Below are positions 1 through 5,990 of a stretch of 6,933 bases of DNA, piece by piece. Each line of letters begins with the position of its first letter. Positions within the stretch are counted from its first letter, which is position 1. The notes under the pieces are model-generated. The model worked only from the letters and a program-made list of their open reading frames with translations, searched no databases and was not told the origin of the DNA. The translations under genes and the position numbers were made by a program. Origin of the DNA: a virus (lineage: Duplodnaviria > Heunggongvirae > Uroviricota > Caudoviricetes); the IMG/VR virus record IMGVR_UViG_2548876700_000016. One strand, given 5' to 3'.

Positions 1-183
1 CCGGAACTGATAAACAGGCATCACGCAATCATATTCGTAACCTTCACGGCGGTAAGTTACGCACCGTCCCGCCACGCCCTTAATCATTACCGTGCCGCCG
101 TACTGGTCGCGGTAAATATCACCGCGCGTAAATTTAGGGTGAGTGTTGCCACTGGCAGTTAAGCCAGAATATTTAAGTTTCAT
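1..183 (-). CDS. Hypothetical small protein, 5' part only (61 codons open to the window edge; 3' end lies beyond position 1)
   Basis: ATG at 183-181 on the minus strand with GGAGA about 9 nt upstream; starts 5 nt after the stop of the 189-422 gene; no stop codon through to the window edge. N-terminus reads MKLKYSGLTASGNTHPKFTRGDIYRDQYGG... Not on the ORF track because it is truncated. Confidence 0.4.
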   Translation of the reverse strand, partial: MKLKYSGLTASGNTHPKFTRGDIYRDQYGGTVMIKGVAGRCVTYRREGYEYDCVMPVYQFR

Positions 184-188
184 TATTT

Positions 189-422
189 TTATTCTCCGGT
201 GTGCTGTTCGTTATATCTGTCGTGCAATGTCTCTATTTCCTGCAACTCATTTATTACAGGCTCAAGAAGCGTTATTAATGATGTAATAATCCGCGTTTTT
301 TTTGCATTACGTTCATTATCGCCAAAGGATTCAAGGCACATCCGCAATATTTCGTACATACCTTCAGCGTAAGCAAGGGCACTAAATGCGCGGTCTATTG
401 TTTCAAGATAAATATCACGCAT
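189..422 (-). CDS. Hypothetical small protein (77 aa)
   Basis: ORF-track ORF. The upstream gene's stop (TAA, 426-424) is 1 nt from this ATG (422-420), and a GGGGA Shine-Dalgarno lies inside the upstream gene's 3' end: classic translational coupling. No recognisable family. Confidence 0.5.
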   Translation of the reverse strand: MRDIYLETIDRAFSALAYAEGMYEILRMCLESFGDNERNAKKTRIITSLITLLEPVINELQEIETLHDRYNEQHTGE

Positions 423-423
423 A

Positions 424-645
424 TTAATCCCCGTCCGTTGTTTTTCTTAAAACAGCTTCTGTCACGAAATCAGCATAGTTAGCGGCAATATCAAGAATAT
501 TTAGCCCTGTACCTCTGTGCTCATCAGTGCAAAGAAAGAAAAAAGCCACCCGCATAATTTCAGATATTGACGAAAGCGCATCAGCCGCATCATCAGGAAC
601 GCCGGAAAATTCTTGTTTCAGGGAATTAAAACGATCATCACGCAT
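424..645 (-). CDS. Hypothetical small protein (73 aa)
   Basis: ORF-track ORF. ATG at 645-643 preceded by GGGAGGGGGGG with about 7 nt spacing; its start overlaps the 3' end of the upstream 618-863 gene by 28 nt in another frame. No recognisable family. Confidence 0.5.
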   Translation of the reverse strand: MRDDRFNSLKQEFSGVPDDAADALSSISEIMRVAFFFLCTDEHRGTGLNILDIAANYADFVTEAVLRKTTDGD

Positions 646-863
646 AACCCCCCCTCCCCATTTTCACAATCAGCAACAAGAATATTTTTAGCGTCATTCA
701 GCGACCGCGTGGCGGTGTATCGGATGCATTCCAGGGCGAACAATGTGTATTCTTCCCGTTCTTCCTTTTGTGCAAGCCCTGCTGTGCATTCAATATCAAT
801 AAGCGCATGCATCAGCGTAGTGAGCGCGGCGGCGGCTGCGTCCGGCGTGGTTTTATTGTGCAT
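618..863 (-). CDS. Hypothetical small protein (81 aa from the internal Met; the track ORF extends to 893)
   Basis: ATG at 863-861 with GGGGGA 5 nt upstream; this start overlaps the last codons of the 853-1320 gene by 8 nt. The same stop/SD/ATG arrangement is repeated at 1313-1320 for the paralogous upstream gene. The first Met of the track ORF (893) has no SD. Confidence 0.35.
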   Translation of the reverse strand: MHNKTTPDAAAAALTTLMHALIDIECTAGLAQKEEREEYTLFALECIRYTATRSLNDAKNILVADCENGEGGLCVMIVLIP

Positions 864-1320
864 AGGTTTCCCCCTGACGAATACGGGCGACAAAAATCAG
901 ATGTGCGTGCGGCAGCTGGGCGCGGGCTTCGCGTTCTGTTGCTGCCGTGACGGTAAAGAGTGAGGTTTGTTTTTCCTGGCACTGCATAAAGCGCCAGACA
1001 AAATAAGGGCGTGCGGATACAGCCATGTGAAAGGCTCCCAGATGAATTTTAAGGAGTCTCGCTACTACGCTGTCAAACATGGTGGCGAGACGTAACAGGG
1101 TTGACAGACTGGTCATCTGGAAACCAGCGAGCACAAAGGCTCCCCCGTTACGCCCCGCCATAATGCGGGTATGGGTAGGTTTACGGACACAAAAAAACCG
1201 CTTATCGGATGTGGGCGGCTGTCCGCCAGATGTATTCAGGCTGTCAAACCCGGTCGCCATGTGGGCGACGGGGGAAGCATACAGCCCCGTGATAATTTTT
1301 TGCAAGCGGTTTTTACGCAT
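853..1320 (-). CDS. Hypothetical protein (155 aa) whose C-terminal 57 aa are paralogous to the 67-aa protein at 1313-1516; may alternatively be expressed as a standalone 57-aa protein from the internal ATG at 1026
   Basis: Continuous ORF. ATG at 1320-1318 overlaps the upstream gene's stop by 8 nt with a GGGG SD. The internal ATG at 1026-1024 has its own GGGAG SD about 8 nt upstream. The C-terminal segment ...YFVWRFMQ...ATEREARAQ...LIFVARIRQG aligns with ...YIWRFIAL...ATSEQEARQQ...VFAARIRQG of the 1313-1516 protein, with synonymous codon differences (cgc/cgt, gcc/gca) that support this frame. Confidence 0.45.
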   Translation of the reverse strand: MRKNRLQKIITGLYASPVAHMATGFDSLNTSGGQPPTSDKRFFCVRKPTHTRIMAGRNGGAFVLAGFQMTSLSTLLRLATMFDSVVARLLKIHLGAFHMAVSARPYFVWRFMQCQEKQTSLFTVTAATEREARAQLPHAHLIFVARIRQGETYAQ

Positions 1321-1516
1321 GATGTGACCCCTGACGAATACGGGCAGCGAATACCATCACGCAGCCAGCCGGAGATTGCTGGCGTGCTTCCTGTTCGCTG
1401 GTGGCCTCAATGGTAATCACGCGCGGTTGTGCCGTGCTCAGGGCGATAAAACGCCAGATGTATTTATTCAGGTTGTGCGAGTCCCGCCCTTGCGGGTGTG
1501 TGGTATGATTTCTCAT
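1313..1516 (-). CDS. Hypothetical small protein (67 aa), first gene of the minus-strand small-gene operon
   Basis: ATG at 1516-1514 with GAGGT 4 nt upstream. It is the C-terminal 67 codons of the 354-aa track ORF. Paralogous to the C-terminus of the 853-1320 protein. Sits directly downstream of the divergent control region. Confidence 0.55.
   Translation of the reverse strand: MRNHTTHPQGRDSHNLNKYIWRFIALSTAQPRVITIEATSEQEARQQSPAGCVMVFAARIRQGSHHA
1501..1509 (+). promoter_or_regulatory. Candidate extended -10 promoter element (TGgTATGAT) on the plus strand
   Basis: Sequence tggtatgat fits the extended -10 consensus TGnTATAAT with one mismatch. It lies about 45 nt upstream of the terminator hairpin at 1553-1597 and inside the first codons of the minus-strand gene. 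No convincing -35, which is common for extended -10 promoters. Confidence 0.3.
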
Positions 1517-1552
1517 AGCTACCTCGATACGCTTTCTATCGTTGGTGGTTAG

Positions 1553-1597
1553 AAGCCCTGCGAGTGGTAACGACACTTGCGGGGCTTTGCTTTTTAC
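1553..1597 (+). terminator. Rho-independent terminator-like hairpin, plus-strand specific
   Basis: AAGCCCTGCGAGTG (1553-1566) pairs with CACTTGCGGGGCTT (1574-1587): 14 bp with two G-U wobbles that would be A-C mismatches in the minus-strand RNA. 7-nt loop, followed by TGCTTTTTA. Confidence 0.5.
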
Positions 1598-1612
1598 TGT
1601 ACCTACTGATAT

Positions 1613-1656
1613 TGTACGTACGTAACAGCAATGATAATAGGAGTTACGTACGTACA
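1613..1656. promoter_or_regulatory. Perfect 14-bp inverted repeat, candidate operator for the Arc-like repressor
   Basis: TGTACGTACGTAAC (1613-1626) and GTTACGTACGTACA (1643-1656), separated by 16 bp. The spacer contains the AGGAG Shine-Dalgarno (1639-1643) and the right arm abuts the ATG at 1656. A candidate minus-strand promoter (TACAAT / TTATCA) overlaps the arms. Confidence 0.55.
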
Positions 1657-1847
1657 TGTCAACATTAAAGCGCGATAAATCGCCACGCGGTGAGGGATGG
1701 TCTCCAACCTTCCAAATCAGAATCAGTAAAGAGCTACGCCAACAAGTAAATGAGGCGGCAACTTCTGACGGTCTAACCCTTGGTAACTGGTTTAAAGAAT
1801 TAGCTAGGGCAGAACTAAAGCGGCGCGGCATAGAGCCAAAAGGTTGA
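1656..1847 (+). CDS. Arc/Mnt-family ribbon-helix-helix DNA-binding protein (63 aa)
   Basis: PTFQIRISKELRQQVNEAATSDGLTLGNWFKELARAELKRRG aligns position by position with the P22 Arc core PQFNLRWPREVLDLVRKVAEENGRSVNSEIYQRVMESFKKEG (beta-strand F-x-L/I-R, then two helices). AGGAG SD at 1639-1643, 12 nt from the ATG. Confidence 0.75.
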   Translation: MSTLKRDKSPRGEGWSPTFQIRISKELRQQVNEAATSDGLTLGNWFKELARAELKRRGIEPKG

Positions 1848-1868
1848 ATTTCAGAAGGAGATAAAATA

Positions 1869-2021
1869 ATGAACTGGCTGTTACATACCCTCCCAGGTCG
1901 CATTCTCATTGCACTAATTATTTTATGGATTTTGTACCAATTCGGTTTTTTCGATTCGCTTTGGAAGCCTGACTGTTCCGTTAACCCTGGCGATGTACTG
2001 AAAGGCTGTAAAAATGGCTGA
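1869..2021 (+). CDS. Small single-pass membrane peptide (50 aa), below the ORF-track size cutoff
   Basis: AAGGAG (1855-1860) 8 nt upstream of ATG at 1869. Translates to MNWLLHTLPGRILIALIILWILYQFGFFDSLWKPDCSVNPGDVLKGCKNG, with a hydrophobic helix ILIALIILWILYQFGFF and a short tail with two Cys. Stop TGA at 2019-2021. Starts 21 nt after the Arc-like gene's stop. Confidence 0.55.
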   Translation: MNWLLHTLPGRILIALIILWILYQFGFFDSLWKPDCSVNPGDVLKGCKNG

Positions 2022-2052
2022 TCAGGGTTACTCCCTGTAATGCCTTTAACTG

Positions 2053-2080
2053 GCCCTCTTAAAGAGGGTTGGTTATCTTC
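2053..2080 (+). terminator. Weak terminator-like hairpin downstream of the RHH/membrane-peptide bicistron
   Basis: CCCTC (2054-2058) / GAGGG (2064-2068) with loop TTAAA, followed by a T-rich but interrupted tract TTGGTTATCTT. Confidence 0.3.
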
Positions 2081-2330
2081 GCAGCTCTCTACGTTTTTCG
2101 TCGGAACCTCTGAACCTAAGCAGTGTTGATGTTCAGGAGAACCCGAATACTGTTCGTGTTCGTTGCTCGCCAATTCTCGCGTTTCGCGATAATCAAAATG
2201 ATTCAATGGGTTGAGATGTCCGTACGTTAAACGTACGCGGTTAATTTGTACGTGCGAATTTCGTCGGCTCAAATTCTGCGCAACCCTGATTGAGTTATGC
2301 AAATAGCACGCGGCTAACTCACAAGGATTT

Positions 2331-2362
2331 GAGCGCCCCCAAACGGGGGAGCGCAAAATTTT
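2331..2362. terminator. GC-rich hairpin between the convergent operons, possible terminator for either strand
   Basis: CCCCC (2336-2340) / GGGGG (2345-2349) with loop AAAC, extended by 2-3 flanking base pairs with one mismatch, followed by AAAATTTT. Lies 15-45 nt downstream of the Rha-like stop on the minus strand. Neither strand has a clean U-run immediately after the stem. Confidence 0.3.
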
Positions 2363-2376
2363 AGGCATAAGACGCA

Positions 2377-3087
2377 TCAGCGAATCTCCAACACTGACGA
2401 TGAAGTGATCAGGCTGGCGAACGCATCCATACGGCGGGCAACCTCACGCACCGCATCGCCTGGACTCATGTCATTACGCACCGCCTCATTAAAGGCCGCC
2501 TGTTCGATTTTCTGCATCACTACCAACAGCCCCAATTGCTGTTCGTCTGCGGTACCGCGTTCACCATCAGACAAACCAGCCACGCGGTTTTCAGCGCGGG
2601 CCAGATTGATGTAATGGTGCCGTTGTGCGCCCAGAGCTTTTAATCTGTCGCGGCTTTCGTGATAGCCAGGCAGGTACTCACGGCGGATAGGTTCTGCGGC
2701 GCGGCGCTTAGTGAATGCCTTCGTAACATCCAGTTTGAACTGGTTAATACGCTCAGGATCACGCCCTCGGGTGATACGCAGCAGATAGTCGAGCTGCGGC
2801 TCATTCAGCAGATAACTAATCTCAGGACGCCCACGCTTTCGGCCGGATTTTCCCGATTTCAAATCGGTTAATTCCTTGAGTGACTGACGAGGCAGTGATC
2901 CCAGCTCGCGCAATCTGCTCTGGTGCGATTTAATCGTCGCGCTTAGGCTTTCATGTTGTATTCCGGCTCGCTCTGAAATAACGCGGGAATCGATACGCGG
3001 CTCCGATTTGTGATTAATTAAAATATCGCTCTGGCTGGCTTCAGGGTGAGCGAATCCCTGCCCGTTGAGGGCATTAATCTTTTTCAT
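2377..3087 (-). CDS. Rha-family phage regulatory protein (236 aa)
   Basis: N-terminal region IDSRVISERAGIQHESLSATIKSHQSRLRELG matches the Rha-domain signature D-S-R-x-I-x-E-x-x-G-x-x-H-x-x-L-x-x-x-I as I recall it. Starts 20 nt after the alpA-like stop, so probably co-transcribed. C-terminal region not recognised. Confidence 0.6.
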   Translation of the reverse strand: MKKINALNGQGFAHPEASQSDILINHKSEPRIDSRVISERAGIQHESLSATIKSHQSRLRELGSLPRQSLKELTDLKSGKSGRKRGRPEISYLLNEPQLDYLLRITRGRDPERINQFKLDVTKAFTKRRAAEPIRREYLPGYHESRDRLKALGAQRHHYINLARAENRVAGLSDGERGTADEQQLGLLVVMQKIEQAAFNEAVRNDMSPGDAVREVARRMDAFASLITSSSVLEIR

Positions 3088-3107: not shown

Positions 3108-3392
3108 TTAAGCAGATTTGCGGCTGTATGGGTTATTGACGTTCTCTACTACAGGCGGATTACGAACCCACCAGAGCACATCAGAAAGAAGCCAGGCACA
3201 GCTATTGCGGCCGAAGTGGCAGCGTGGCGGAAATCGTCCTTGCTGCTCCATTTTCCAACGGCTGGAACGGGAAAGGCTGGTGATCTCGCTACATTCTTCT
3301 TCACGGATTCGACGATCGAACTTAAAGCCGTACTCTTCTAAAAGGGTGCGGCGCTGTTCAGGATTAGGCGGGGTAAAAATGGGGTTTTGCAT
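3108..3392 (-). CDS. alpA: AlpA-family (Xis/MerR-like HTH) prophage transcriptional regulator (94 aa from the internal Met; the track ORF extends to 3434)
   Basis: EITSLSRSSRWKMEQQGRFPPRCHFGRNSCAWLLSDVLWWV follows the AlpA pattern (T-G/S-L-S-R-S-T-I-Y...G-x-F-P-x-P...W...E-V/I-x-x-W). GGAGG lies 4 nt upstream of the ATG at 3392-3390; the first Met of the track ORF (3434) has no SD. Confidence 0.75.
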   Translation of the reverse strand: MQNPIFTPPNPEQRRTLLEEYGFKFDRRIREEECSEITSLSRSSRWKMEQQGRFPPRCHFGRNSCAWLLSDVLWWVRNPPVVENVNNPYSRKSA

Positions 3393-3472
3393 GTTGCCTC
3401 CACTGTTTCTAAGTTTGTGGAGGCTAGTTTGCAACCGTTAACACTGGATAGAAATACAGTTGTAAGCATAGA

Positions 3473-3530: not shown

Positions 3531-4460
3531 TTACTGTGTTCTTTCGCTCGGCCTCTTATGCGCATTGTTTAATATTGCTGCTATTTTCGTTTCTGTTTTT
3601 ATTGGCAATTCACCATTGATGAACCAGTCAGGTCTGGCGATCAACTCACGGGCCCAGGCAGAATAGTTAATAGTTCCATCTGTTTTTCTGCAACTCTCAT
3701 TAAAAGCATTTTGCTGCTCTTCTTTGAAGCGCATGGCTACCATTAAAATTTGCTCTCGATTTCTTGCATGTCTTTCAGCAGAATGATGAACAATTTCATT
3801 GCCATTCATCTTATGAGGTTCTACAAATTCAATATCATCTGTCAGCGTGAAATAATCGCCACCACAGTCAAGGAGCCGCCTTATATCCTGAGCAGTAATC
3901 CACAAATCGTTTATAGAGATTTTATTTTTGAATACTTGATCGTCTTCTTCATCATAATCGCTATCTTCGCCAACCATTAAAAGCTGTACGGCGGGATTAT
4001 CAGTTTCTGGATGGCACGGGGTTAATTCAAAACCACTTAGGGCATACTCTCCAAAATTTTGTAGCTCTTCTAATCCGCTCCAAAGACGCCACAACCCATA
4101 AGCCTTACCAATAGAACTGAAACACCCATTTTCTGTATCTTGACCAAATAAAGGCACGTGAATCGTTTCTTCCGTTTCCTCATTGTAATCGCATCTGTAG
4201 AGATGAAGCCTGGAAAATTCAGTAATATTGTTTCCCATCATGGATGTGGTGGAGTTTGCCTTTCTGGTATCGAACCAGTCGCATGCAGATTTGCTGTCAG
4301 TTCTCATATATAAAACAGCGCGAGCATCAAACAAATTTAGACATAAAGATATTTTTTTAGTAACACCTAAATTAATCAGGTCGCTAATCTCACAACCCAG
4401 CAATCTCGACGCACGTTCAATATTGCAGTATTGAAAAGGTATTTTAATGTCGTTAGCCAT
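3531..4460 (-). CDS. Hypothetical protein (309 aa), AT-rich orphan cargo gene of unknown function
   Basis: ORF-track ORF with GAGGG SD 7 nt upstream of ATG at 4460-4458. Visibly more AT-rich than the flanking int and alpA/rha genes. N-terminal stretch IERASRLLGCEISDLINLG looks HTH-like; central acidic stretch EDSDYDEEDD. No P-loop, nuclease or other catalytic motif recognised by eye. Confidence 0.7.
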   Translation of the reverse strand: MANDIKIPFQYCNIERASRLLGCEISDLINLGVTKKISLCLNLFDARAVLYMRTDSKSACDWFDTRKANSTTSMMGNNITEFSRLHLYRCDYNEETEETIHVPLFGQDTENGCFSSIGKAYGLWRLWSGLEELQNFGEYALSGFELTPCHPETDNPAVQLLMVGEDSDYDEEDDQVFKNKISINDLWITAQDIRRLLDCGGDYFTLTDDIEFVEPHKMNGNEIVHHSAERHARNREQILMVAMRFKEEQQNAFNESCRKTDGTINYSAWARELIARPDWFINGELPIKTETKIAAILNNAHKRPSERTQ

Positions 4461-4497
4461 TGCGCTGCCCTCAACGCCCCTAAATTAATTTGCGAGC

Positions 4498-4522
4498 CAA
4501 GCGGGTAGGGTTTCCCGCTTTT
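4498..4522. other. Short hairpin in the int/orphan intergenic region, weak terminator candidate
   Basis: AAGCGGG (4499-4505) / CCCGCTT (4514-4520) with an 8-nt loop. The plus-strand tail is TTTTCGG; the minus-strand tail has no T-run. Confidence 0.25.
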
Positions 4523-4553
4523 CGGTTGGCCGACCTAGGCCCGCAATATCAGT

Positions 4554-5780
4554 TTAATCTCTATTCATTACAGGTAACAGAACCACATTTTGATGATTAC
4601 CCGCAAGAAGTTCTAATCGTTCATACCACTTATTCAGCGCGTCCAGCTTCTCAGGCAAGTACAGACTACGGTTATAAATCGCCATAACTCCCGGCATTGA
4701 GTGCCCCAACAACTGTTCGACAACGTGTGGTGCTATACCCATATTATTCATATGCGTTGCTAAAGTTCGTCTTAGATCGTGCAGTGTCCATGGTTCAGAA
4801 TGCCCCAGCTTTTTATAAACGCTACGGCCCCACTGGCTTACCGCTTCACTGCCTTTAACCGACCCAAGCAAAAGACCGGATAGTTTCGTTTCATCATGCA
4901 GTATTTCAATGAATTTGCGCATGGCATCCGGCACAGGTCTTACAATCTTCTCGCCGCCCTTGCTGTGCTCTTTGGGAACTGTCCAGACCCAGGCATCCAT
5001 ATCCCATTCACTCCACTCTGATAGTCTGGCCTCCTGCGTTCGGCACCCAAACACCATTAAGATTGTCAGTAGCCTGGTGTAGTAAGGCATGAAGCAAGTG
5101 CTAGAGGTAATGGCAGTCCATAAATCGCCAGCCTCTTTATCGTTTAATACCCGATCTTTTTTTGCCTGTTTTTTACCGACATCTGGAATTGTTAAATCTT
5201 CAAGCGCGGTACTCACAGCATAGCGACGAACCCGGCAGAATTTCAGGGCTTGTTTGCACATCTGGAACACATAACCTGCGGCGACTGGCGTTTTCTTTTT
5301 CATCCTGTCAAAGCAGTCAAGCCAGTATCGGGTTTCGCAGTCAGCGAGCGCCATTTTTCCAATGTAAGGGTAAATATGTTTGCGTAGCTCCGCTTTATGC
5401 CGCTCAACATTCGCGCGATTCTCTTCTGCATATTCACGTATCCAGTATTCGATAGCTTCCTGCACCGTGACCGGTTTAAGCGTTTCCTGAGTAGTTAGCG
5501 CCAACTGGTGCTTTGGGTCTTTACCTGAGGCCAGCCACTGGCGGCATTTATCACGCGAGGAACGGGCCTCTTTGAGGCTCATATCCGGGTATCGTCCCAG
5601 AGTAAGACGATGCAACTTCTGCCCGTCGAGTCGGTAAGTAAACACCCAGCTAATACCACCAGCTTTCGTTACCTTGGCACTCAGCCCGGCACCATCAGCA
5701 TAGAACTCAATCTTACTGGCCGGGATGCCATGTAATCCCTTTAACTTCCTGTCGCTCAGTTTGTTAAGTTCGCCAGCCAT
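4554..5780 (-). CDS. int: Tyrosine recombinase/integrase, P4-type with an N-terminal arm-binding domain (408 aa from Met at 5780; the track ORF extends to 5864)
   Basis: C-terminal catalytic signature HDLRRT ... LLGHS ... AIYNRS (R, H-x-x-R, H, Y). N-terminal pattern L-x-D-x-K...DG-x-GL...W...YR...G-K...LG-x-YP-x-x-SL-x-x-AR typical of P4/CP4-type integrases. The Mets at 5864 and 5840 lack an SD; the Met at 5780 has a weak GGTGG. Confidence 0.85.
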   Translation of the reverse strand: MAGELNKLSDRKLKGLHGIPASKIEFYADGAGLSAKVTKAGGISWVFTYRLDGQKLHRLTLGRYPDMSLKEARSSRDKCRQWLASGKDPKHQLALTTQETLKPVTVQEAIEYWIREYAEENRANVERHKAELRKHIYPYIGKMALADCETRYWLDCFDRMKKKTPVAAGYVFQMCKQALKFCRVRRYAVSTALEDLTIPDVGKKQAKKDRVLNDKEAGDLWTAITSSTCFMPYYTRLLTILMVFGCRTQEARLSEWSEWDMDAWVWTVPKEHSKGGEKIVRPVPDAMRKFIEILHDETKLSGLLLGSVKGSEAVSQWGRSVYKKLGHSEPWTLHDLRRTLATHMNNMGIAPHVVEQLLGHSMPGVMAIYNRSLYLPEKLDALNKWYERLELLAGNHQNVVLLPVMNRD

Positions 5781-5797
5781 AGACCACCAGCCCAAAG

Positions 5798-5819
5798 TGT
5801 TTATACAAATGTTTATACA
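5798..5819. repeat. Tandem direct repeat TGTTTATACA x2 (12-bp period) upstream of the int start
   Basis: tgtttatacaaa / tgtttatacag at 5798-5819, about 20 nt upstream of the int ATG in an AT-rich junction-proximal region. The position fits integrase arm-type or IHF-like sites; this is inference. Confidence 0.3.
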
Positions 5820-5947
5820 GAATTGCTTGCATAATAGCATAAACAAAGAAAAACACTGGAACAATATACAGGCATAAATTTAAATAAGCCATTGATTATT
5901 ATATAAATACTAAAATCACCTAAAAGCATGAAAACAGCTAATCTGAC

Positions 5948-5964
5948 AGTACGGCATGAACTAA
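5948..5964 (+). other. fis: Displaced 3'-terminal fragment of fis (..YGMN-stop): candidate att core and right boundary of the integrated element
   Basis: TAC GGC ATG AAC TAA at 5950-5964 encodes YGMN-stop, the C-terminus of Fis as I recall it. An in-frame TGA at 5944-5946 and unrelated upstream sequence show that the rest of fis is not here. Downstream is the native-looking terminator and yhdJ. Confidence 0.5.
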
Positions 5965-5990
5965 TTCAGGTTAGCTAATTGCTTGATTAA

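Follow-up and report, generated by a model that had tools for sequence, protein, structure and literature searches.

RNA-based immunity has been described for phages P1 and P7, in which heteroimmunity resides in the a′ and b′ segments of the C4 RNA of the immI region, and for the satellite P4, in which the mechanism is summarized in Barth et al. 2023, citing Forti et al. 1999 (PMC10111431). Phage-inducible chromosomal islands (PICIs) integrated at fis have been defined, and Rfam matches to C4 and to isrK have been reported at survey level within Bro/ASH genes of Gram-negative PICIs (PMC10111431). In the isrK/orf45/anrP segment of Gifsy-1, the nucleotides of orf45 are conserved and its peptide is variable, yet its translation is required for the downstream gene (PMC4825925). 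Here we analyze a locus related to these systems, in a stretch of 6,933 nt from the Caudoviricetes record IMGVR_UViG_2548876700_000016. We call the whole stretch the window and count positions from its start. Positions 1–1516 are filled by six head-to-tail open reading frames (ORFs) on the minus strand, icd1, ORF155, g3, g4, g5 and g6, and the genes and RNA elements placed below within these positions are on that strand. We consider it likely that this region is the immunity and early leader region of the replication operon of a fis-integrated PICI, with a C4-type RNA that silences the operon and translation that overrides the silencing.

An immunity RNA within ORF155

A C4/CI-type antisense RNA was found at 1078–1165 (Rfam RF01695, 72.6 bits against a gathering score of 45, E 3.5e-13), matching the model over its full length (model positions 1–87) and folding at a minimum free energy of −47 kcal/mol. 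Its a′ segment CUGUCAA (1101–1107) and its b′ loop CCAGAUG (1114–1120) are complementary to two pairs of targets. The upstream pair is a1, UUUGACAG (1241–1248), and b1, CAUCUGG (1226–1232). The downstream pair is a2, again UUUGACAG (1070–1077), which lies directly 3′ of C4 and matches the annotated a2 site of P1, and b2, CAUCUGG (1038–1044), which overlaps the Shine-Dalgarno sequence GGGAG (1035–1039) of a gene, icd2, that is nested in ORF155. The 3′ end of C4 reads GCCACCA, which we take to resemble an RNase P substrate.

The upstream target region, 1226–1282, contains a hairpin (1253–1269) and a c4-a1b1 element (1233–1282; RF03163, 46.8 bits, a marginal pass at a gathering score of 46.7). 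Between a1/b1 and C4, in the position of an IsrK-type terminator, is a short hairpin followed by U7 (1191–1220) that is conserved in P1. The C4 and c4-a1b1 matches, and an isrK match considered below, all fall within the first 98 codons of ORF155.

A conserved 18-mer retrieved 74 loci from IMG/VR; with the window, P1 (L002; loci are cited by such numbers) and ST130 (L001), these gave 70 module instances. Every one of the 70 has identical a1 and a2, identical b1 and b2, and C4 segments complementary to both pairs, even as the sequences themselves vary, with a-variants numbering two (GACAG, AGCAG) and b-variants at least 12. Co-variation among all three partners argues strongly that the RNA module is functional and that a and b determine its specificity, as between P1 and P7. 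In related loci the b complementarity reaches into the Shine-Dalgarno sequence, and two of them (L029 and L036) have a compensatory stem change in the a1/b1 hairpin, from GTCGCC/GGCGAC to GTCACC/GGTGAC. Among the sampled loci no b sequence is common to the satellite-type and the P1-type. Over 1068–1257 the DNA is 76–80% identical to the c4 region of P1, P7 and D6, and it can be aligned element by element with the annotated immI of P1: the −35 and −10 of P1c4, a1, b1, the hairpin and U-run, c4, a2, b2, the Shine-Dalgarno sequence and icd.

The stretch 1191–1269, with its hairpin and U7, matches isrK at 35 bits. It could accordingly be read as an IsrK-type activator, in which a short a1/b1 transcript ending at the U-run would open a ribosome-binding site in trans on the read-through mRNA. 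Such a mechanism has been demonstrated for IsrK/orf45/anrP of Gifsy-1 (PMC4825925), and the relatives with two modules carry an isrK element of full score. For the window we regard it as very unlikely, because the match is well under the isrK gathering score of 50, and because a full C4 with loops complementary to both target pairs stands between a1/b1 and the regulated gene. As judged from the module and its complementarities, a C4-type RNA probably keeps the operon shut off.

A type I toxin-antitoxin system was also considered and ruled out: the RNA is cis-encoded, is in the sense orientation upstream of its target, and would be processed from the same transcript, unlike an antisense gene that overlaps its target.

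Some observations concern the origin and variation of the module. The b1 region CTGAATACATCTGGCG (1224–1239) differs only by a gap of 4 nt from the icd1 codons that specify LNKYIWR, CTGAATAAATACATCTGGCG (1451–1470). CAUCUGG is thus also found inside icd1, at 1454–1460, which may be a coincidence, a third target or a trace of how the module arose. Two tandem modules about 480 nt apart occur in five of the 12 relatives scanned (L009, L014, L022, L031 and L041); the order is an isrK-type element and C4, icd1, c4-a1b1 and C4, then icd2, and both a and b differ between the modules. In another locus (L064) unrelated sequence breaks into C4 some 25 nt from its start, and the immunity RNA there has apparently been disrupted by an insertion.

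ORF155, icd2 and the proposed switch

ORF155 (853–1320, 155 aa) starts 8 nt within the end of icd1 (1313–1516, 67 aa), passes through a1/b1, the hairpin and U-run, C4 and a2/b2, and ends as icd2 (853–1026). Its ATG at 1320 overlaps the icd1 stop codon and has a Shine-Dalgarno sequence of its own. The nested icd2 is an Icd-like gene of 57 aa with its own start (GGGAG, 8 nt, ATG at 1026), whose first residues, MAVSARPYF..., are kept in 27 loci. The family model NF033153 (curated cut-off 25 bits) matches this part of the frame, ORF155 residues 107–149, at 52.3 bits (E 4.2e-14).

Coding tests were made on a comparative set of some 30 related loci, taken from IMG/VR and from genomes of E. coli. The ratio of nonsynonymous to synonymous polymorphism (pN/pS) is 0.34 for icd2 and rises to 1.1–1.5, in its own frame, for the 98-codon extension of ORF155. 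Six loci read a stretch of 37 codons, lying between b1 and b′, in a different frame although its nucleotides are almost the same, so the peptide of the extension is not conserved. The frame itself is open in 29 of 30 loci, and the 27 stop-triplet events in the 294 nt of the extension, of which 25 are polymorphic, all lie outside phase 0. The lengths of b1, the hairpin loop and the C4 loop vary by indels, occurring as 8/13/10, 7/14/10 and 7/13/11, with a constant sum; two loci of identical b type (L001 and L083) have two different configurations.

A frame that is open but unconstrained is what the eta/kil mechanism of P4 predicts. ORF155 is not an ordinary protein gene; by layout it is a counterpart of P4 eta, and icd2 is a counterpart of P4 kil and P1 icd. 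A preliminary description of this DNA, made from the letters and a list of ORFs, had counted the 155 codons as one of six small genes; the first 98 of them overlie the RNA module and are without protein-level constraint. The same confusion is found in databases, where at least 120 clusters of proteins of 152–155 aa have the NCBI names "Icd-like" or "ash family", and the RefSeq record L001 annotates no RNA at the module. Our reading corrects the recurrent error by which this ORF is named plain Icd-like.

A candidate internal promoter lies at 1276–1305 (TTGCAA, 18 nt, TATGCT). It aligns with the P1c4 promoter (P51b) of P1, its −10 aligns with TATAGT at the 5′ end of the P4 match, and both hexamers are conserved in satellite loci. 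In the quiescent island this homolog of P51b would make a short transcript from which C4 would be processed. The a′ and b′ segments of C4 would then pair with a2 and b2 and cover the icd2 ribosome-binding site, the untranslated icd2 mRNA would be terminated prematurely, and g3–g6 and the replication genes would remain silent. In P4, immunity reportedly blocks kil translation, which permits Rho-dependent termination. The transcript of the window is richer in C than in G across 750–1350 and is therefore compatible with Rho loading. On induction, transcription would come from further upstream, either from a promoter at 1634–1662 that would be under the control of a ribbon-helix-helix (RHH) regulator, or by read-through from alpA and rha. 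Ribosomes ending icd1 would re-initiate at the ATG at 1320 and translate ORF155 through the module, which would prevent both C4 action and termination, as translation of eta does in P4. The Icd-like products would transiently block host division; such a block is known for P1 Icd (P1 annotation), and killing is known for P4 Kil (PMC10111431). We infer the internal promoter, C4 processing, Rho-type termination and translational override by analogy with these systems, and likewise infer the activities of the Icd-like proteins, g3–g5 and the DUF4222 product g6.

The module could instead work purely in the manner of P1, with C4 repressing icd2 and the downstream genes following by coupling and polarity; the ORF155 extension would then have no purpose and be open only through conservation of the RNA. 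The high pN/pS of the extension and its frame-switched segment fit such an account, the region is highly conserved as nucleotides, and P1-type loci work without this ORF, the extension being absent in 39 of 45 P1-type phage loci. In one locus (L070) the frame is in fact broken, by a change in a T-run. The account does not explain why the frame is otherwise kept, with stop triplets in the other phases, or why the three indel configurations, as well as the two found at a single b type, all restore it. Nor does it explain a start codon with a Shine-Dalgarno sequence placed on the icd1 stop. P4 eta offers a precedent for a translated frame of this kind, and in Gifsy-1 the variable orf45 peptide must nevertheless be made (PMC4825925). 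We hold the pure P1 manner to be unlikely, and prefer silencing by C4 with override by translation of ORF155.

Several points count against this preference. The mechanism is proposed here from sequence. The internal promoter agrees with consensus at 8 of 12 positions, under our scan threshold, and is drawn from homology; the c4-a1b1 match barely exceeds its gathering score and the isrK match is under its own. The openness of ORF155 could partly reflect sequence conservation at the RNA level, and the break in L070 counts here as well. The module is optional, since there are PICIs with identical g5, DUF4222 and helicase genes but without C4; two elements of one genome (L086 and L087) have the C4 module in neither copy. 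BLASTP of ORF155 against P4 Eta is not significant, so that the likeness is one of layout, RNA and Icd domain. The P4 core genes (epsilon, alpha primase and sid/delta/psu) have no matches in the window, where the layout thus differs from P4 in having no epsilon or alpha primase. An antirepressor of the P1 ant1/ant2 type was likewise not found, with no ANT, KilA or Bro match in g3–g6; what follows downstream is DUF4222 and a helicase.

Operon genes and control region

Beyond icd1 and ORF155 the string continues with g3 (618–863, 81 aa from its ATG), g4 (424–645, 73 aa), g5 (189–422, 77 aa) and g6 (1–183, partial, at least 61 aa, truncated by the window edge). Neighboring frames overlap by 8 nt (1313–1320), 11 nt (853–863) or 28 nt (618–645), or are separated by 1 nt (423) or 5 nt (184–188), and for every start a G-rich Shine-Dalgarno sequence lies within the gene before it. 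The in-frame pN/pS is 0.60 for icd1, 0.40 for g3, 0.38 for g4, 0.34 for g5 and 0.40 for g6. In the other two frames of the same strand it is about 1.0–1.5 for icd1, icd2, g3, g4 and g5, and 1.06 and 0.85 for g6. Because the frames are conserved in relatives and have coding-like pN/pS, they are real minus-strand protein genes.

Much of the preliminary description thereby holds: coding on the minus strand, tight coupling in one operon, Shine-Dalgarno sequences embedded in the preceding genes, an MRD start in two genes (g4 and g5), and a paralogous pair, namely icd1 and the C-terminal part of ORF155, which both belong to NF033153 and are about 41% identical. Its placement of the element at the fis locus, and of a promoter and operator region upstream of the string, also agree with our results. 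Its 8- and 28-nt overlaps and 1-nt gap were found, but the junctions also include an 11-nt overlap and a 5-nt gap. It would have been abandoned had the frames been lost from related elements or the plus strand been the coding one, and neither was found; the frames are kept in related elements, among which the cassette between icd2 and DUF4222 is mosaic.

The statement that none of the six genes resembled a nameable family does not hold. By sequence, icd1 (NF033153, E 1.4e-19, 69.8 bits) and icd2 are members of the Icd-like family, and g6 matches DUF4222 (PF13973, gathering score 27, E 2.9e-20), with 72 bits for the partial g6 and 82 bits for the full-length homolog in L066. In relatives g6 is 99 aa long and overlaps by 4 nt the start of a gene for an AAA_25/RepA-type helicase (L066, L001 and L085–L088). 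For icd1, the homology reaches 16 residues upstream, making an alternative upstream start possible. It also matches phrog_6196 (E 1e-45), whose label "transcriptional repressor" probably traces to an old "cI" ORF annotation of P4.

The three genes between are less telling. For g3 (phrog_5146, E 2e-13) the alignment begins at residue 1, as do tblastn matches in relatives, so its start is the ATG at 863 and not the upstream TTG. There are 75 clusters of g4 (phrog_24341, E 2e-42) in E. coli and Shigella, and 440 of g5 (phrog_2196, E 1e-30), all of the latter named hypothetical. None of the three has a match in Pfam, NCBIfam or PADLOC, their PHROGs being "unknown function" families only, and none of the nine window proteins scanned with PADLOC matches a defense-system model at E ≤ 0.01. 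The AlphaFold2 model of g5 is a two-helix hairpin (predicted local distance difference test score, pLDDT, 92) that finds only generic helical hairpins in a Foldseek search of the PDB (best E 0.3); the model of g4 is of low confidence (pLDDT 62). A contig scan with g4 returned two loci. The profile and structure searches that the preliminary description had proposed thus named three of the six genes, two as Icd-like and one as DUF4222, but left g3, g4 and g5 without a name.

The cassette between icd2 and DUF4222 owes its mosaic character to g3, g4 and g5, each of which is present or absent in different elements. At the g3/g4 junction a G-rich tract, GGGGAGGGGGGG (648–659), serves as the Shine-Dalgarno sequence of g4, and in relatives it occurs as G7, G8, G9, GGGGTGGG or GGGGAGGGGGGG. 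Its length sets the g3 stop: G7 gives an in-frame g3-g4 fusion (L062), G8 an 8-nt overlap, and G9 or GGGGAGGGGGGG a 28-nt overlap. Fused g3-g4 proteins are also found in databases (P0179 and P0187), and phrog_2512 spans both halves. There is in addition an in-frame g4-g5 chimera (P0172), joined at the MRD start of g5. The chimera and the fusions together indicate that these small genes recombine as modules. In position g3–g5 correspond to epsilon/orf151/orf106 of P4, and they could have a helper-directed or an anti-host role.

The preliminary description had taken the six genes to be independent small proteins, an unexplained anti-host or anti-defense payload driven only by the RHH-controlled promoter. 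We think this quite improbable. It is true that g3, g4 and g5 are real genes whose presence varies between elements, as in accessory cassettes, and that they are placed where P4 has epsilon, a helper-derepression gene; a strong promoter with an operator-like repeat is also present at 1614–1662. But two of the six are Icd-like and one of these is mostly RNA module, g3–g5 lack the family and defense matches listed above and the g5 fold is a generic hairpin, and the operon runs unbroken into replication genes. In relatives it goes on beyond the window edge with DUF4222, the AAA_25/RepA-type helicase, SSB, PerC and capsid and packaging genes. The operon is better described as the immunity and early leader of a satellite replication operon, probably silenced by C4, with translation that would override the silencing.

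The control region has a sigma-70-type promoter match on the minus strand (1662–1634; TTGACA, 17 nt, TATTAT; 11 of 12 positions), flanked by 13-nt inverted repeats, GTACGTACGTAAC at 1643–1655 and GTTACGTACGTAC at 1614–1626, which are presumed to be the RHH operator. The RHH regulator gene itself (YlcI/YnfO or HicB-like) is divergent, at 1656–1847 on the plus strand; the family matches are weak (E 3e-4 to 2e-3), and homologs in L001 and L084 are named by PGAP. The icd1 leader, between this promoter and icd1, contains a 15-bp hairpin (1552–1588) that is terminator-like on the plus strand. The 5′ arm of this hairpin, read ...KSKAP..., recurs in the leaders of satellites with other icd1 types.

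The icd1 frame remains open for 287 codons further upstream, making ORF354 (1313–2377, minus strand, 354 codons). Beginning on the rha-like gene's stop codon, ORF354 crosses the RHH gene, orf50 and the strong promoter in antisense and finishes as icd1. No stops interrupt it, as against 10–22 in the other five frames, a result with a chance of about 1e-6 from stop-frequency estimates. In L084 the frame stays open although it carries indels of 27 and 54 nt, both of them in frame, and in most relatives a long ORF on the same strand likewise bridges the upstream gene to icd1. The third codon positions of the RHH gene and of the antisense ORF354 coincide on the two strands. ORF354 may encode a real protein, or it may be a second translation-only frame. 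At 2055–2272, a part of the window between orf50 and the rha-like gene in which no ordinary gene was called, the DNA is 90% identical to a region labeled "hypothetical protein" in Escherichia phage vB_KppS-Ant, a 16.5-kb induced prophage.

A wider reading, which we put forward tentatively and hold to be somewhat doubtful, is that satellites use a chain of translation-only frames, from the rha-like gene to ORF354, ORF155 and g3 onward, as an anti-termination device combined with an a/b address code. If so, the frames would be kept open by selection and their peptides left unconstrained, and ribosomes arriving from upstream would traverse the repressor gene in antisense and the immunity RNA in sense, and would override the two of them. 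The code would comprise two a-variants and at least seven b-variants in satellites, with the two modules differing in code where one element has both, and through it satellites and P1-type plasmids that reside together would not be immune to one another.

The element and its relation to known systems

At the int-proximal end of the element, 5950–5962 on the plus strand, is the attachment (att) identity block TACGGCATGAACT, the 3′ end of fis, in an exact match to the published consensus (PMC10111431). The inward-pointing int is at 4554–5864 on the minus strand, an alpA-type ORF is at 3108–3434, and yhdJ begins at 5983 across the att junction, an arrangement that is annotated likewise in L084. 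The att block, yhdJ, the inward int, the alpA-type ORF and the Rha-like gene together identify a fis-integrated Gram-negative PICI, and by the criteria of PMC10111431 the element is such a satellite. DNA resembling 1–2400 of the window is found in 1767 of 5426 complete E. coli genomes, a figure for similarity over 1–2400 and not a count of C4 modules.

Other features were noted in the element and its relatives. An int-alpA RNA (RF02996, 61.2 bits, gathering score 35.8) lies at 4477–4545 on the minus strand, between int and an ORF of 309 aa. This ORF (3531–4460, minus strand) lies between int and alpA; its only match is to phrog_7144, of unknown function (E 7e-40), and its L084 homolog is hypothetical according to PGAP. 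A gene for a PerC-family transcriptional activator follows SSB in the same operon in L066, L085, L087 and L088.

Compared with P4 (L079), the window has an RNA of the same family (CI scores 74.9 bits as C4, and the window RNA 72.6), an upstream element of a1b1/isrK type, a downstream target at the ribosome-binding site of an Icd-like gene, and a satellite context with int and alpA. In both, a long ORF coupled to an upstream gene starts upstream of the RNA, spans it and ends as an Icd-like product. In P4 this is the ORF at 8168–8812, which spans the c4-a1b1/isrK element (8615–8705) and the CI RNA (8420–8507). It is eta with kil nested in it, and its C-terminus matches NF033153 (E 1.4e-20), a family common to icd1, icd2, P1 Icd and the Kil part of P4 Eta. 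The two differ upstream of the long ORF, where the window has a second Icd-like gene and P4 has vis/alpA, and downstream, where the window has g3–g5, DUF4222 and the AAA_25 helicase and P4 has epsilon, orf151, orf106 and the alpha primase. In place of the P4 core genes the relatives of the window carry an AAA_25 helicase or a primase, and HK97-type capsid genes. The a1b1 element of the window is of the P1 type (RF03163) and not of the full isrK type.

With immI of P1 and P7 the window shares the whole order of −35/−10, a1, b1, hairpin and U-run, C4, a2, b2, Shine-Dalgarno sequence and Icd-like gene, as well as a specificity that would act through a′ and b′ as in P1 versus P7 heteroimmunity. 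The Icd-like ORF directly follows a2/b2, with b2 at its ribosome-binding site. In contrast to immI, the window has an extra Icd-like gene and a long overlapping upstream ORF, and has no C1 operator. The likeness to Gifsy-1 lies in an a1b1/isrK-like element with a terminator and in a leader ORF conserved in nucleotides and variable in peptide; there, however, the short RNA activates and the output is an antirepressor, whereas here isrK is sub-threshold and C4 is present.

As in the fis PICIs (PMC10111431), the inward int is beside the att block with yhdJ across the junction, and alpA, a Rha/Bro-type gene and Icd/ASH-type genes with C4/isrK matches are present. A difference is that the zones for replication and late functions fall beyond the window and are known only from relatives, which have both. 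Our reading would place the P1/P4 logic of RNA immunity at the head of the replication operon, in PICIs of fis-type and in capsid-forming ones, and would offer a concrete switch for satellite induction; the natural orthogonal a/b pairs could serve as parts for RNA regulators. The biology introduces no new principle, and is an extension of the well-studied RNA immunity of the P1 immI and P4 types.

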